A DNA stretch of 64,000 bases from a bacterium (GTDB lineage: Bacteria; Patescibacteriota; UBA1384; VFKW01), in the NCBI GenBank assembly GCA_030647355.1, contig JAUSIS010000006.1, positions 253,465-317,464 on the forward strand, written 5' to 3'. A program made the position numbers and the translations under genes. The notes under the pieces are model-generated. The model worked only from the letters and a program-made list of their open reading frames with translations, ran no database searches and was not told the DNA's origin. Of this stretch, positions 6,039 to 61,654 are shown piece after piece. Each line of letters starts with the position of its first letter. The first letter of the stretch is position 1.

Positions 6039-6965
6039 CTATACTTTTTCAATTACCCTCAACTTAGCACTCGCTGCCCTAGCATTACCTTCGAGTTCAC
6101 TCTCTTTTGGCAATATCGGCTTTTTAGTAATCAAACGGACAACCGGATTTTCTATCAATGACATATTCTTAAATGTATGCTTTACGATCCTGTCTTCGAG
6201 CGAGTGGAAAGTGATAATAAACAACCTACCTCCTGGTTTTAACAAATCAACAGCTTGGGGGATAACCTCCTCAAGCGCCCCCAATTCATTATTCACTTCC
6301 ATTCGTATTGCACGAAATATTTTACTTGCGTAAGTCCCACCGCGTTTTGAAAAACGATACTTAGGCGGAGTAGCTTTTCGGACAATATCTAATAGATCTC
6401 CAATAGTTATTATAGGTCTCGGTTCTCTTTCTAACGCAATCCGATGGGCAATTCTTCGCGAAAATGGCTCCTCGCCATATTTAAAAAATATATCCGAAAG
6501 CTTACTCTCTGGATATTTATTTACTACATCATACGCAGATAGACTCTGCCGTTGATCCATCCTCATATCAAGCTTTTGCCGTAAATTCTCCTCAGTTTCT
6601 CGAAAACTAAATCCCCGCTCTACTTTATCGATCTGGTAACTAGAGACTCCAAGATCAATTAGTATACCATCCACCGCCGAAAAACCAAGATGATTAATAA
6701 TCAACTTTAAATCAACGAAATTATTGTTTTCGTATATAATTCTATCACCATAATTGCGTAAATTTGATTGAGCGGCAAAAATTGCCTCACTATCCCGATC
6801 AATTCCAATGACCCTTCCATTCTCAAATAATCTCTCTGCTATCAAAGCAGTATGGCCGCCGCCGCCTAAAGTACAATCAACATATACACCCTGCGGCAAT
6901 ACATTCAATAATTCGACAATTTCATCAGCTAAAACGGGCTTGTGAAATAAATTAGTCTCTTCCAT
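6039..6965 (-). CDS. rsmH: 16S rRNA (cytosine1402-N4)-methyltransferase RsmH/MraW
   Basis: HKPVLADEIVELL...YVDCTLGGGGH signature of RsmH. Confidence 0.85.
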   Translation of the reverse strand: MEETNLFHKPVLADEIVELLNVLPQGVYVDCTLGGGGHTALIAERLFENGRVIGIDRDSEAIFAAQSNLRNYGDRIIYENNNFVDLKLIINHLGFSAVDGILIDLGVSSYQIDKVERGFSFRETEENLRQKLDMRMDQRQSLSAYDVVNKYPESKLSDIFFKYGEEPFSRRIAHRIALEREPRPIITIGDLLDIVRKATPPKYRFSKRGGTYASKIFRAIRMEVNNELGALEEVIPQAVDLLKPGGRLFIITFHSLEDRIVKHTFKNMSLIENPVVRLITKKPILPKESELEGNARAASAKLRVIEKV

Positions 6966-7032
6966 TTATCTCTCCAAATTTAAGTATACAAGAAAATATT
7001 AAATCTGTAATGCTTAAAAATACAATTATAGC

Positions 7033-36035: not shown

Positions 36036-36266
36036 ACATACACTTTAATACAGCAAACATACAGTTGTCAAGAGCAAGGTAAAAATACTTTTTTCCTCCC
36101 GCCCAGTCTTCCCATCTTGTAGAATAAATAGTCTGTCTGCCTCAAGGTCGTTCATCTCGTAGGGTGCTCCACCTTGACCCAGCCAGCCAATTTATTCTTT
36201 GCCTCTCATCAGATGGGCGGGAAGGTCGATATCGCTCATTGTAAGTTAATTAGAGAGGAGGTATAT

Positions 36267-54307: not shown

Positions 54308-54635
54308 ATATACTCCCTATCGCCAGCATAGCACGATACCCCTGACTATTCAAGTAAATATATAATAATATAAACCCTAAAAACATACCACAAATCCAGT
54401 TATCCACAACACTCGCTTGCAAATAAAAACCACTATTGCTAGTATCAAAACGATCGTTAATAACCAAATTTAGTAGTGTAAGGATAAACCGGTGAAAAAC
54501 CGGTGCGGTCCCGCCACTGTAAATTCTGAGTAAGGCGAAGAATTTATCCCGAGCTTAGTCGAGGGATAAGCCCTTCGACTCGCTTCGCTCGCTCAGGACA
54601 AGCCAGAAAACCTGCTGCTAAATCGTTAAGTCCTC

Positions 54636-59087: not shown

Positions 59088-60221
59088 CTAGCGGCGTTTT
59101 AAGAAATCAATATATTCAGGATCTAAAAGATAGCGTCTAATTATACATCTGATAAATTCCCTTATTCTATCGTTTAGATCAGATCCATTTAACCCTTCAG
59201 TATGAAATTTATCCATGATTTTCTCAATGTTGCTATATTCACCATGCGCGATACTAGATCTAAGATTATAAATTTGCCTAAGCAACTTTTCTGTCTCTCT
59301 CAAATCTGCCTTTTTATTTTCTTGATAATAAACATCAGCGGTTTTAAGAATAAACTGTTTGCTGATCGAATCTTCTGCATTATATCGTTGGTCGGGATTA
59401 TGGGTCAGCATCAGCTCAATAATACTGACTAGCATTATTAATTGAAGATTCCAATCCAAAGTGGAATGAAAAAACAAAATTTCACCGATATACTTGAACC
59501 TTTTTTCTTGATCAGGAAGTAGCTTTTCTAGCTGTCCCGCATAATATTTCAGCTTAGGTAGTTTTAGTATAAGCTTGTCGCCATCGGTTTCTTCTTTAAA
59601 CAACTTACTCAATTCTTGCACATTGATCGAAGGATAAACATCTGGTGGCATACCAGCATCATATGCCTCTCCTTCTATAGGCGTGCCACTGAAAAAAATA
59701 GGTAAAGCAAAAAAATCATTTAAGACTAAATTTAAAAATTCTAAGTAAAAGAGAACATGAGTTTTCTTGACCGACGCTACAGTATCTTCGTCATAGTCAA
59801 CATCTGGACCAAAAGCATCATAACCCAATGGATGCTTCGAAAAAACCTCCTCATATAATTCCTTAGAGACATCGAATCGCAATATGACCCATTTCTTAGC
59901 TAGGGCTTCCTGAAATGATTTGAGGCTTTTCAAAGAATTCTTAGGCAAATTTTTCCTAGCAAACTCTTGGATTGATTGGTCGTTAAAATCTTCGTCAGTA
60001 ATTTTATCTAGACAACGAACAATACAATCAATTTCATACCCCTTCGGATTATCTAATTCAATCCTGTGGTATTTGGATAAACTGATTTTTGCAATATTCC
60101 CAAAGCCACTCAATAACAGAGATCGAGACATTTTATTAATCTCCATATCCTTGAAGGCAAAAACTAAAGCAATAACTGATACTTTCAACCACAGCATAGT
60201 TCTTTTTTTCTTGGCTGACAA
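59088..60221 (-). CDS. Hypothetical protein
   Basis: 377-aa ORF, N-terminal signal/TM. No motif recognised. Confidence 0.3.
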   Translation of the reverse strand: MSAKKKRTMLWLKVSVIALVFAFKDMEINKMSRSLLLSGFGNIAKISLSKYHRIELDNPKGYEIDCIVRCLDKITDEDFNDQSIQEFARKNLPKNSLKSLKSFQEALAKKWVILRFDVSKELYEEVFSKHPLGYDAFGPDVDYDEDTVASVKKTHVLFYLEFLNLVLNDFFALPIFFSGTPIEGEAYDAGMPPDVYPSINVQELSKLFKEETDGDKLILKLPKLKYYAGQLEKLLPDQEKRFKYIGEILFFHSTLDWNLQLIMLVSIIELMLTHNPDQRYNAEDSISKQFILKTADVYYQENKKADLRETEKLLRQIYNLRSSIAHGEYSNIEKIMDKFHTEGLNGSDLNDRIREFIRCIIRRYLLDPEYIDFLKRR

Positions 60222-60254
60222 CGGGTGAATAAGTTTTAATAATGAGTAAAAGTC

Positions 60255-60437
60255 TTCTGTGGACTCAGGGAGATTCGAACTCCCGACCTCAATCCCTCAC
60301 CCTTTAATTGGTGGACCGTGCCGAATTCGAATCGGCGACCTCCACAATGCGAATGTGGCGCTCTAGCCAACTGAGCTAACGGCCCATGAAAGGGTGAAGG
60401 GACAAATGTAGCGCTCTACCAACTGAGCTATGAGCCT
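60255..60437 (-). other. Split tRNA-like sequence whose 5' part (60386-60437) and 3' part (60255-60308) flank the tRNA-Ala(CGC) gene
   Basis: The 5' part has an acceptor-like AGGCTCA plus a canonical D-arm GCTCAGTTGGTAGAGC. The 3' part has T-arm GGGAGTTCGAATCTCCC plus acceptor 3' strand TGAGTCC (pairs 6 of 7, G3:U70). The two parts also carry complementary CCCTTCACCCTTT / AAAGGGTGAGGG arms bracketing tRNA-Ala. Confidence 0.3.
60309..60385 (-). tRNA. tRNA-Ala(CGC)
   Basis: Cloverleaf parsed by eye: acceptor GGGCCGT/ACGGTCC with G3:U70, D-arm GCTCAGTTGGCTAGAGC, anticodon loop TTCGCAT, T-arm GCCGATTCGAATTCGGC, CCA encoded. Confidence 0.85.
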
Positions 60438-60506
60438 GGCTTTTCATTTCTTACCTTATATGATAACATAAAAAAAACTAAGCCACAACCAGTTAACCTG
60501 CATATT

Positions 60507-61112
60507 ATGATTGAATATAAAATAGACAAAGACAACCCAAATCCAGTAATTATTCAAAAAGCCGCCGAAGCCATTATTAATGGTAAGGTGGTAATATTTC
60601 CTACCGATACCAGCTATGGCTTAGCCGCCAACCCCATCAGCGAGCAAGCCATCGAGCGCCTATACCTCATTAAAAATGATCTAAAGAAAAAACCAATTTC
60701 GGTAATAGTACGCGACAAGCAAATGGCAAAAAAATATGCCGTCATCGAAAATGAGTCAGAGAAATTCTTTGATAAATACCTCCCTGGATCCGTAACCCTT
60801 ATCTACCCCGCCAAACGCGAGGATTTCTTACCCAATCAAAATCCCAGCTTTAGAATTCCCGGCACCCCATTAACCAACATGCTTTCTGACCTTCTGGATT
60901 TTCCCTACACAGCCACAAGCGCCAACCTAACCCGCTACGAGCCGGCTTATACCCCAGAAAAAATCTATGAATATTTCAAATCCAATAAACCCCAGCCAGA
61001 TATTTTCTTAAACGCAGGGGAGCTAGAAATCAACCCACCCTCCACAGTTGTAGATTTAATAACCACTCCACCCAAAATCATCCGACAAGGACCCACTAAA
61101 ATCGACCTCTAA
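60507..61112 (+). CDS. tsaC: Threonylcarbamoyl-AMP synthase (YrdC/Sua5 family)
   Basis: KVVIFPTDTSYGLAANP...KKKPISVIV YrdC motifs. Confidence 0.8.
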   Translation: MIEYKIDKDNPNPVIIQKAAEAIINGKVVIFPTDTSYGLAANPISEQAIERLYLIKNDLKKKPISVIVRDKQMAKKYAVIENESEKFFDKYLPGSVTLIYPAKREDFLPNQNPSFRIPGTPLTNMLSDLLDFPYTATSANLTRYEPAYTPEKIYEYFKSNKPQPDIFLNAGELEINPPSTVVDLITTPPKIIRQGPTKIDL

Positions 61113-61305
61113 TCTTGTTAAAACCGGCAATTTGCTGTATAATTTAATATATTAAGTGAAACCATTCTTTCTGAAAGACATCTCGGAGCCAAGCGAGCAT
61201 GGTCCCAGCTCTTTCCCAGAAAGGGCTGGGGAGCGAGGCGAGAGTAAGCGCCCCGATTTCGCTGGAAGAGGGGACGCGGTCTTGAAGAAAGTAATAGTTG
61301 AGCAA

Positions 61306-61424: not shown

Positions 61425-61541
61425 GAACGATTATACTGGGACTCGAAGGGAAGTTGAGCGCATCCAGTGGATGAAAAGGCGAACAGCTCTTGTGAGCCGT
61501 CAGCGAAACTCCCAGGCTTCGGAGGAGCTCTGAAAGAGCGG

Positions 61542-61588
61542 GGGAGAAGGAGTCCCACCTTCAACGACGGGAGAAGGAGTCCCACCTT
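61542..61588 (+). repeat. Two direct copies of GGGAGAAGGAGTCCCACCTT (period 27 nt) sharing 12 nt with the tRNA-Leu T-arm/3' region
   Basis: GAGTCCCACCTT occurs at 61371 in the tRNA and at 61549 and 61576 in the repeats. Confidence 0.6.
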
Positions 61589-61654
61589 TCCCGACAACTA
61601 CTACAAAAAATATCTTTAGACTATCACAAAATATCTCAACCTTATTTATGGTAT

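Follow-up and report, generated by a model that had tools for sequence, protein, structure and literature searches.

A complete tRNA-Ala(CGC) enclosed in a split tRNA-Ala(CGC) gene of a Patescibacteriota genome: probable replacement of a resident tRNA gene by a tRNA-carrying cassette

We have analysed a stretch of 64,000 nucleotides (nt), called the window below, from a bacterium of the Patescibacteriota (UBA1384; VFKW01; GenBank assembly GCA_030647355.1, contig JAUSIS010000006.1, positions 253,465 to 317,464 of the forward strand). In this window, a complete transfer RNA (tRNA) gene, tRNA-Ala(CGC), lies between the two halves of a second tRNA-Ala gene, and we refer to this arrangement as a nest. 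We consider, with a probability of about 0.7, that the nest was made by a tRNA-carrying cassette that interrupts and replaces resident tRNA genes, leaving the inner tRNA as the working copy and the outer gene dead.

The layout of the nest on the minus strand is given in Table 1. The insert that splits the outer tRNA-Ala measures 109 nt and is composed of a 5' arm, the trinucleotide CAT, the complete tRNA-Ala(CGC), ATT and a 3' arm. A preliminary description of this DNA had already recognised the inner tRNA, with its G3:U70 pair and encoded CCA, and both ARAGORN and Rfam call it at the same positions. The 12-bp stem drawn around it in that description is also present, with one bulged T. The duplex between the two flanks reaches -22.0 kcal/mol, against -14.3 +/- 3.0 kcal/mol for shuffled sequences (23 of 2000 shuffles reach the observed value), and the minimum free energy fold of the 196-nt transcript is a cloverleaf within a cloverleaf (-74.2 kcal/mol, z = -3.5, with none of 200 shuffles equally stable). 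As for the outer gene, its acceptor pairs at six of seven positions and contains the proposed G3.U70 pair, but A1 and C72 are mismatched. AGGCTCA, TA and the D-arm follow one another as had been described, except that an extra G stands between the D-arm and CTACA. The gene ends at 60260, and the boundary of 60255 assumed earlier was too wide by 5 nt. The nest is found in identical sequence in a separate Logan assembly of run SRR13727527.

Table 1. Features of the nested tRNA-Ala(CGC) locus in the window.
Feature	Position	Strand	Remarks
yrdC (Sua5/YrdC-family gene)	60507-61112	plus	flanks the nest
Upstream block (..TTATCATATAAGGTAAGA..)	60449-60470	minus	also just 5' of tRNA-Ala(CGC) in L121-L124, L260 and L261
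Outer tRNA-Ala with insert (whole nest)	60437-60260	minus	two collinear halves within 178 nt
Outer acceptor, 5' strand, AGGCTCA	60431-60437	minus	G1>A relative to intact GGGCTCA; followed by TA
Outer D-arm GCTCAGTTGGTAGAGC	60413-60428	minus	intact; sequence and alignment with intact homolog
Outer G26, 5' strand of anticodon stem CTACA, loop remnant TTTGT	60402-60412	minus	alignment with L136 and L124
Insert 5' arm CCCTTCACCCTTT	60389-60401	minus	C-rich; diverged form of the (T)CCCGCACC motif
Leader CAT (3 nt)	60386-60388	minus	precedes the inner tRNA
Inner tRNA-Ala(CGC), complete	60309-60385	minus	G3:U70, encoded CCA; ARAGORN; Rfam 65 bits
Trailer ATT (3 nt)	60306-60308	minus	read from sequence
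Insert 3' arm AAAGGGTGAGGG	60294-60305	minus	G-rich, 12 nt; pairs with the 5' arm
Outer loop positions 37-38 and remnant of 3' anticodon-stem strand ATTG; variable loop AGGTC	60285-60293	minus	3 nt deleted
Outer T-arm GGGAGTTCGAATCTCCC	60268-60284	minus	intact; alignment with intact homolog
Outer acceptor, 3' strand, TGAGTCC (60267-60261) and discriminator A (60260)	60260-60267	minus	no CCA after

The state of the outer gene could be read from an intact counterpart. A metagenome scan with the outer T-arm and acceptor found an uninterrupted tRNA-Ala(CGC), GGGCTCATAGCTCAGTTGGTAGAGCGCTACATTCGCATTGTAGAGGTCGGGAGTTCGAATCTCCCTGAGTCCACCA, which scores 71.5 bits with Rfam (locus L136). Without the insert, the outer gene of the window equals this sequence except for four events, namely G1>A, C34>T, C36>T or its loss, and a 3-nt deletion of positions 41-43 that falls in the 3' strand of the anticodon stem. 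The intact gene reads TTCGC where the window has TTTGT, so that the outer anticodon CGC is mutated. Considering that the two sequences match at all but these four events, the outer halves are no chance resemblance, and the split second tRNA of the preliminary description is real. The outer and inner tRNAs of the window are only 74% identical and are thus different genes.

The covariance and intron-mode checks proposed earlier were carried out, and they left the outer gene undetected. Rfam gave no tRNA signal for the outer halves even at E <= 10, and ARAGORN in its intron and overlay modes called the inner tRNA alone at this locus, besides spurious calls at low threshold. We also enumerated 462 combinations of splice junctions for the window, none of which yields a tRNA-Ala. 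With three outer arms intact, ARAGORN accepts many of the spliced constructs, but their anticodons are arbitrary or shifting and never those of Ala, and for this reason we discount them. Since no junction rebuilds a tRNA-Ala, the outer gene is dead and the inner one appears to be the working copy. Judged by sequence, the outer gene is a disabled tRNA-Ala(CGC) pseudogene, unable to form an anticodon arm, and the inner tRNA-Ala(CGC) is the putative functional gene of the nest. Both marks of a pseudogene made by insertion were found, uninterrupted homologs (L136 and L124) on the one hand and disabling changes in the window copy on the other hand.

Among the possibilities raised at the outset, disruption of a tRNA gene by an insertion agrees with these results, in that the outer gene is uninterrupted in L136 (and in L124 up to the end of its contig) and the inner type stands alone at the corresponding site of L121. 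The reading with a tRNA-sized intervening sequence is correct as anatomy but not as a functional intron in the window, given the mutated anticodon, the three missing nucleotides and the failure of all 462 junctions. A permuted arrangement does not apply, as the halves are collinear, 5' then 3'.

To place the nest among its relatives, orthologous loci were found by tracing YrdC homologs, which bear Patescibacteria, Parcubacteria or Portnoybacteria names, to their contigs. In every relative, tRNA-Ala(CGC) is divergent from yrdC and lies behind a common upstream block. The closest relative by YrdC identity (L124, 70%) has an outer-type tRNA-Ala that runs uninterrupted through the anticodon arm, where the contig stops. 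In L121 (64%), which shares the synteny of yrdC, tRNA-Leu and sortase genes, a plain tRNA is present that is 93% identical to the inner tRNA of the window. Plain tRNA-Ala(CGC) genes are also found in L260 (60%), L122 (58%) and L257/L258 (53%), and L261 (58%) is plain as far as its contig goes, which stops in the anticodon loop. Altogether, six to seven related genomes have a plain tRNA-Ala(CGC) at the yrdC-linked site. L123 (61%) has a full tRNA and, after 9 nt, an orphan 3' arm with an outer 3' half; this piece is about 95% identical to that of the window and carries the same 3-nt deletion.

The plain or uninterrupted sites of the relatives indicate that the nested state is derived and restricted to a lineage. 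The outer 5' half sits where the resident gene begins, as marked by the shared upstream block, and the inner tRNA resembles the allele of another lineage at the same site. Two ordinary, adjacent tRNAs lacking complementary flanks had been named as a finding that would speak against a nest. Ordinary tRNAs without such flanks were indeed seen; however, they are single rather than paired, which points to an insertion and not to an artefact. The upstream block is probably the promoter region, although it has no sigma-70 consensus, and our scan for promoter and terminator consensus sequences on the tRNA strand returned none.

Nests are not confined to the window. A survey of one genome per GTDB species, in which two D-arms 20-50 nt apart were sought, returned more than 119 loci. 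Most of those outside the candidate phyla radiation (CPR) are either tRNA-Lys neighbours that overlap or 5' tRNA fragments placed before a full tRNA that shares their acceptor. We defined the nest class as a complete tRNA with complementary arms, situated within the loop of a tRNA of the same anticodon or its remnant. The window agrees with this definition in all points, and its architecture recurs in at least 19 further loci, with the isotypes Thr, Val, Ala, Ile, Gly and Phe. The nest-bearing survey loci come from metagenome-assembled genomes labelled Patescibacteria-group or 'bacterium', plus one low-GC contig labelled Pseudomonadales. In all of about 20 nests in which both anticodons are readable, the inner anticodon equals the outer one, and only the innermost copies obtain a full tRNA score with Rfam (63-78 bits).

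Nests of tRNA-Thr were found in Kerfeldbacteria (L005, GGT and TGT), Saccharibacteria (L013, CGT, together with Gly CCC; L063, GGT), Parcubacteria (L042, CGT), UBA6816 (L030, TGT), Falkowbacteria (L085, TGT and GGT) and the contig labelled Pseudomonadales (L106, GC 0.37, CGT). A contig of the Patescibacteria group (L117, JAHKAK010000071.1, about 6500-7000, minus strand) has Thr TGT at four levels. A separate pair of complementary arms belongs to each level, and no level but the innermost is called as a full tRNA; the break falls in the D-loop at levels 3 and 4 (GCTCAG/CTTGCCCC...GGGG/TGAAGTAGAGC) and in the anticodon loop at level 2. Val TAC nests occur in Azambacteria (L104, which also has Phe GAA) and in a 'bacterium' (L055, JAUYFS010000027.1, 7850-8000), where at least three levels, each broken after TTTA by TTCACCC-type arms, continue past the stretch examined. 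Two metagenome contigs carry Ile GAT (L127) and Ala TGC (L135) nests. In L135 the roles are reversed relative to the window, for a rejoinable GGGCCGT-type tRNA-Ala(TGC) encloses one of the GGGCTCA type. In two further Thr TGT loci (L120 and L101), an arm-flanked tRNA stands behind an interrupted 5' half; the outer 3' half is heavily eroded in L120, and no matching one is evident in L101.

A second intron family is represented by Ile(TAT) within Ile(TAT) in genomes labelled CPR or 'bacterium' (L004 1180-1410, L075 3720-3960 and L094 7240-7480). Its intron is longer, AT-rich and located near 37/38, and a conserved TATATCGNAGATATA hairpin lies just before the 3' exon. The inner and outer tRNAs of L004 differ almost solely in the acceptor stem, where all changes are compensated. 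Separately, a 592-nt contig labelled Micrarchaeota archaeon (L048, a DPANN bin) contains a tRNA-Val(TAC) within a tRNA-Val(TAC), the exons of which rejoin (ATTAC/.../AT). On a Ferruginibacter chromosome (L059, 1100-1720), about nine 5' tRNA fragments spaced at 67 nt precede a full tRNA with the same acceptor, and such fragment arrays outside CPR are a phenomenon distinct from nests. As far as we found, the nested tRNA class is undescribed: there is no published account of tRNA-in-tRNA nests in the literature searched, which yielded papers on group I introns only and did not cover the content of Castelle et al. 2018, cited for 'divergent group I introns' in tRNA-Thr, where one might be shown.

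In most nests, the insert is located between anticodon positions 35 and 36. Other insertion sites are the D-loop (L117 levels 3 and 4, L085), 26/27 (L063), 31/32 (L127) and near 37/38 (the Ile-TAT family), and all of them lie in loops or junctions that the folded tRNA exposes. The exon junctions are clean, with no target-site duplication in the nests. The outer exons rejoin to a tRNA in L013, L042, L106, L135, L005a and L117 levels 3 and 4, and are broken in the window, L117 level 2, L085, L030, L063 and L127. The outer tRNA-Ala of L127 is nearly erased when compared with syntenic L135. The outer tRNA-Ile of the same contig, an ortholog of a plain tRNA-Ile in L135, has a broken T-stem around an intact inner tRNA. 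Such broken and erased outers indicate that the outer gene is dispensable.

The arms themselves were compared across loci. Because the arms were chosen for their pairing, the following values show nothing beyond complementary arms particular to each nest: cognate arms pair with a mean of -23.2 kcal/mol against -15.2 kcal/mol for arms swapped between loci (0 of 20000 permutations), and in an alignment of the proximal 12 nt of 13 arm pairs, 96.8% of the cells are paired against 62.8% in shuffles (none of 500 reaching the observed value). Nine of the 12 pairs vary on both sides, with a covariation score of 0.83 versus 0.195, and slid registers of the alignment are at most 57% paired. A proximal motif, (T)CCCGCACC.../...GGTGCGGG(A), is found in L127, L135 and L085, with the variants CCCGCCCC, CCCCGCC, CCCGCCTGCC and CCCTCCCACC elsewhere and TCCCTTCACC/GGTGAGGGA in the window; the CAT leader is common to the window, L135 and L127. 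Its presence in different isotypes and classes speaks for a single element family. In a scan of viral contigs, CCCGCACC...GGTGCGGG gave 120 chance matches in GC-rich phage contigs, none of which encloses a tRNA.

Arm hairpins lacking a tRNA were also observed. In L085 (7800-7880, minus strand), an empty hairpin, CCCGCACTAAG-ATTTG-CTTTAGTGCGGG, occupies the anticodon loop of what remains of a Thr(GGT), and in L127 (2110-2160) the hairpins TCCCGACGCAAGGTCGGGA and TCCCGATCGAAGCATCGGGA lie beside a GGACCGTTAG remnant upstream of tRNA-Ala.

The evolution of the helix could be followed between the level 1/2 nest of L117 and the nest of L085, the inners of which are 92% and the outers 90% identical. 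Both carry a derived 3-nt deletion, and they therefore go back to one event. Between their arms there are at least four double changes that compensate each other, and the outer acceptor pair 5:68 is also compensated. Either selection acts on the helix and the outer stems, or nest alleles pass from one lineage to another. A plausible selective reason is that the helix stops the pseudo-halves from misfolding with the essential inner tRNA and offers an entry for processing enzymes.

Based on these observations, we propose the following course of events. The ancestral locus would have held one tRNA-Ala(CGC), divergent from yrdC, of a type O with the acceptor GGGCTCA...TGAGTCC. The 109-nt cassette would have inserted into its anticodon loop at 35/36 or 36/37, bringing a different complete tRNA-Ala(CGC), of a type I with GGGCCGT...ACGGTCC-CCA, between the C-rich and G-rich arms. 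An essential tRNA gene could be disrupted in this way because the cassette brings a working copy of the same anticodon. Transcription would start from the resident promoter and read through the outer 5' half. The arms would then zip into the 12-bp helix, and the acceptor, D-arm and T-arm of the outer gene would fold on themselves and so avoid mispairing with the similar inner tRNA. RNase P may cleave after CAT, and an endonucleolytic cut in or near the helix, by an RNase III-like or RNase Z-like enzyme, may be followed by trimming to the encoded CCA end. GCG codons would be decoded by the inner tRNA only, with the outer halves as by-products. The cassette might spread by homing-like gene conversion or by site-specific insertion, tolerated only in the cognate gene, and the Russian-doll arrays would represent repeated invasions of whichever copy was working at the time.

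Several observations weigh against this reading. An all-against-all BLAST of the open reading frames (ORFs) around 14 nest loci revealed no recurrent transposase, homing endonuclease, recombinase or nuclease, but housekeeping synteny only, and the window contains only one tRNA-bearing cassette in its 64 kb. With neither a recurrent mobility gene nor a target-site duplication, and with this single copy, mobility is something that we infer. Three arms of the outer gene (acceptor, D and T) have stayed nearly perfect, and the window and L123 share about 95% identity over the 3' arm with outer 3' half despite a YrdC identity of 61%. Simple neutral decay does not predict this identity, and a scaffold constraint or recent horizontal spread is needed to account for it. 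The restorable outer exons listed above make splicing possible in the wider family. Moreover, the processing steps that we propose are all taken by analogy from general bacterial tRNA maturation.

The preserved outer stems lead to a possible, though doubtful, explanation that is compatible with cassette replacement, in which the outer halves and arms are a selected scaffold that helps to fold, protect or process the inner tRNA. The compensatory changes between L117 and L085, the near-identical 3' pieces of the window and L123, and acceptor and T stems that remain paired even where the anticodon stem is lost are in keeping with it. On the other hand, six to seven relatives have plain tRNAs at the corresponding locus that work scaffold-free, the outers of L127 and L120 are heavily eroded, and horizontal spread of a nest allele would explain the high identity as well. 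The restorable exons could instead mean that the outer gene is functional, such that release of the inner tRNA frees the intron, the arms hold the exons together and a ligase joins them, giving two tRNAs per transcript. We regard this as distinctly unlikely. Removal of the insert does rebuild a tRNA with the inner anticodon in the restorable cases, L013 and L042 nest in the same Gly(CCC)-Thr(CGT) cluster with near-identical intron ends (CCCGCCTKCC...GGRCAGG) and outer stems that all differ by compensatory changes, and the split tRNAs of Nanoarchaeum have GC-rich complementary arms similar to those of nests. However, the window exons cannot rebuild tRNA-Ala, the outer tRNA-Ala kept in L135 is eroded and evidently dispensable in L127, and the anticodon stem is partly missing in the outers of L117 level 2, L085, L030, L063 and L127. 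There is neither a group I core nor a bulge-helix-bulge geometry, as both junctions are at the same helix end; ends made by RNase P and RNase Z are not known to be joined by RtcB; and the spliced product would merely duplicate the inner anticodon, with no obvious benefit. A broader and still unlikely proposal is that a mobile helix-plus-tRNA intron of Patescibacteria homes into tRNA loops of the same anticodon (35/36 and D-loop) and is removed at the RNA level in the members with intact exons. There (L013, L042, L106 and L135), tRNA-processing enzymes would excise the inner tRNA, while arm trimming and exon ligation would fall to some bacterial activity. If so, this would be protein-dependent tRNA splicing in Bacteria, and the window copy, like the four-deep array of L117, would be a fossil left by one invasion after another.

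Partial tandem duplication, or att-style tRNA pieces left behind by genomic islands, would make nests a by-product of integrative elements. This is suggested by the large serine recombinase beside the orthologous tRNA of L122, the different genes past the tRNA in the window and L121, the orphan 3' halves after full tRNAs in L123 and L127, and the many loci outside CPR with a 5' fragment followed by a full tRNA of the same acceptor. We consider it highly improbable, because integration leaves one-sided direct 3' repeats of a large element rather than symmetric halves around 109 nt, because outer and inner are different genes (the 74% identity noted above), and because complementary arms with a conserved motif are not predicted. 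An assembly or amplification artefact, or a chance resemblance, can hardly be credited. All data do come from metagenome assemblies; yet the sequence is identical in two of them, at least 19 loci with analogous nests come from unrelated projects and assemblers, the inner gene has direct orientation and covarying arms on either side, and the fold is far more stable than shuffles, as given above.

Among known systems, group I introns are the first to be compared. They sit in the anticodon loops of Patescibacteria tRNAs, where the unusual 35/36 site is also used (Nakagawa et al. 2026, PMC13011429; Williams 2020, bioRxiv 10.1101/2020.01.27.920355), and neither of these two papers mentions tRNA-in-tRNA. 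Nests resemble them in phylum, tRNA hosts, loop and often the 35/36 position, as well as in clean insertion without target duplication and in being overlooked by standard tRNA finders. Unlike group I introns, the insert of the window has only 109 nt, 77 of which are tRNA, carries a whole tRNA and leaves a host gene that cannot be restored. A group I intron has a P3-P9 core detectable with RF00028 and a length of about 200 nt or more. No such core was found by cmscan at E <= 10 on 60150-60550 or at the gathering threshold in 18 nest loci; neither these scans nor a low-threshold Rfam scan of an Ile(TAT) nest revealed a ribozyme, only tRNAs and transfer-messenger RNA. The group I rule of U at -1, which makes a U.G pair in P1, is broken by G in the window (T if the junction is 36/37) and by G, A or C in other nests, and the last nucleotide of the insert, G by the group I rule, is usually G, with A in L135. 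A group I intron was accordingly rejected, on account of the absent catalytic core, the short length and the wrong -1 nucleotide.

Archaeal split and multi-intron tRNAs, such as the Nanoarchaeum equitans halves with GC-rich complementary leaders and the non-canonical introns of Thermoproteales (PMC4090602, PMC3978253), likewise have halves joined by a GC-rich helix of 12-14 bp, introns in the D and anticodon loops, and related intron sequences across different tRNAs. In contrast to them, nests are found in bacterial genomes, with collinear halves on one transcript and an intervening piece that is itself a tRNA of the same anticodon. The bulge-helix-bulge (3-4-3) motif was absent by eye in the five nests inspected (window, L013, L117, L135 and L004), where the two junctions are opposed across the proximal end of the arm helix. 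These bacteria are not known to possess a splicing endonuclease. A bulge-helix-bulge intron was rejected for its wrong geometry and the bacterial host. The outer gene is not split or permuted either, since its halves stand in collinear order on one strand, within 178 nt.

The intron of archaeal pre-tRNA-Trp holds a C/D box small RNA, and a nest similarly contains a second functional RNA within a tRNA intervening sequence, to be freed by processing. The archaeal host is spliced and functional and its cargo is a guide RNA, whereas the cargo of the nest is a replacement tRNA and the host of the window is dead. Intervening sequences of bacterial 23S and 16S ribosomal RNA (rRNA) are removed by RNase III without religation, and rRNA insertions are frequent in CPR (Tsurumaki et al. 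2024, as cited in PMC13011429). Here too a stable-RNA gene tolerates an insert that forms a helix, since the insert is taken out during processing. Unlike an rRNA, which works in pieces, a tRNA cut in the anticodon loop fails, and the function of the nest is rescued by the cargo copy. Genomic islands in tRNA genes carry a replacement 3' end, according to the account of Williams 2002 and Mageeney et al. 2020 in PMC13011429, and they share with nests the principle that an essential tRNA can be a target if the element restores the disrupted function. They replace only the 3' part and have kilobases, an integrase and direct repeats, whereas the cassette has about 110 nt, a whole tRNA and inverted arms. 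No integrase was seen in or beside the 109-nt insert, and since the flanks are the 5' and 3' halves of a different tRNA, an att duplication was rejected. Terminal inverted repeats like those of a miniature inverted-repeat transposable element (MITE) are present, as arms of 12-13 nt with a motif common across loci, but a classical MITE was rejected for want of a target-site duplication. Closest in logic, by analogy, would be the gene-restoring tRNA islands, the rRNA intervening sequences and the archaeal split tRNAs with GC-rich arms.

In terms of practice, standard tRNA finders give only the innermost gene of a nest, which affects tRNA counts, pseudogene calls and completeness estimates in CPR. 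Nests suggest a route by which an essential single-copy tRNA can be replaced by a foreign allele without loss of function, and such replacement could explain why tRNA-Ala(CGC) sequences are so different among close relatives at one conserved locus. Nested arrays would keep the order of the replacement events. The class offers a bacterial counterpart to archaeal split and multi-intron tRNAs, and the debate on the origin of tRNA introns becomes testable in a new lineage. If any nests with intact exons are spliced, a tRNA splicing route new to Bacteria would be at hand.

In the neighbourhood of the nest, besides yrdC, there are a tRNA-Leu(CAA), a sortase gene, an EamA transporter gene and two ORFs without assigned function, and the genes beyond tRNA-Ala differ between the window and L121. 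Directly beyond the nest, on the minus strand (59088-60221), lies an ORF of 377 amino acids that is absent from syntenic L121. It has a weak HEPN match (PF18737, E = 0.005; PADLOC CARF_HEPN, E = 0.0025) and an R-x4-H motif (LRSSIAH), and these sequence features make it a candidate for a defence or RNase gene, perhaps on a small island beside the tRNA. In L122, a large serine recombinase with Resolvase, Recombinase and Zn_ribbon_recom domains (379-1896) abuts the orthologous tRNA-Ala(CGC), which suggests that this tRNA is also an integration site for larger elements.

Orphan tRNA 3' halves closely follow a full tRNA in L123 (1-210, Ala) and L127 (1620-1700, Lys), and L121 has a 24-nt 5' fragment of tRNA-Leu and a CCTGCC...GGCAGG hairpin upstream of its tRNA-Leu. 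The two orphan halves and the tRNA-Leu fragment may be eroded nests. The tRNA-Leu(CAA) of the window is flanked by GC-rich, strongly folding segments (61156-61300 and 61440-61600; z = -5.5 for the whole region), which belong to no Rfam family. In the second segment, which shows 77% conservation in L121, a 3' segment of the tRNA-Leu itself, GAGTCCCACCTT, occurs twice. Another nest was considered here and rejected, as the fold leaves the tRNA unenclosed. Elsewhere in the window, an intergenic long hairpin (36036-36173; hairpin 36098-36221) has ends, TCCCGCCC...GGGCGGGA, that resemble nest arms; it encloses a rod of about 100 nt (z = -3.8), is followed by an A/T run and has no Rfam match. A cobalamin riboswitch (Rfam RF00174, 41.5 bits) is located at 54457-54633 on the plus strand.

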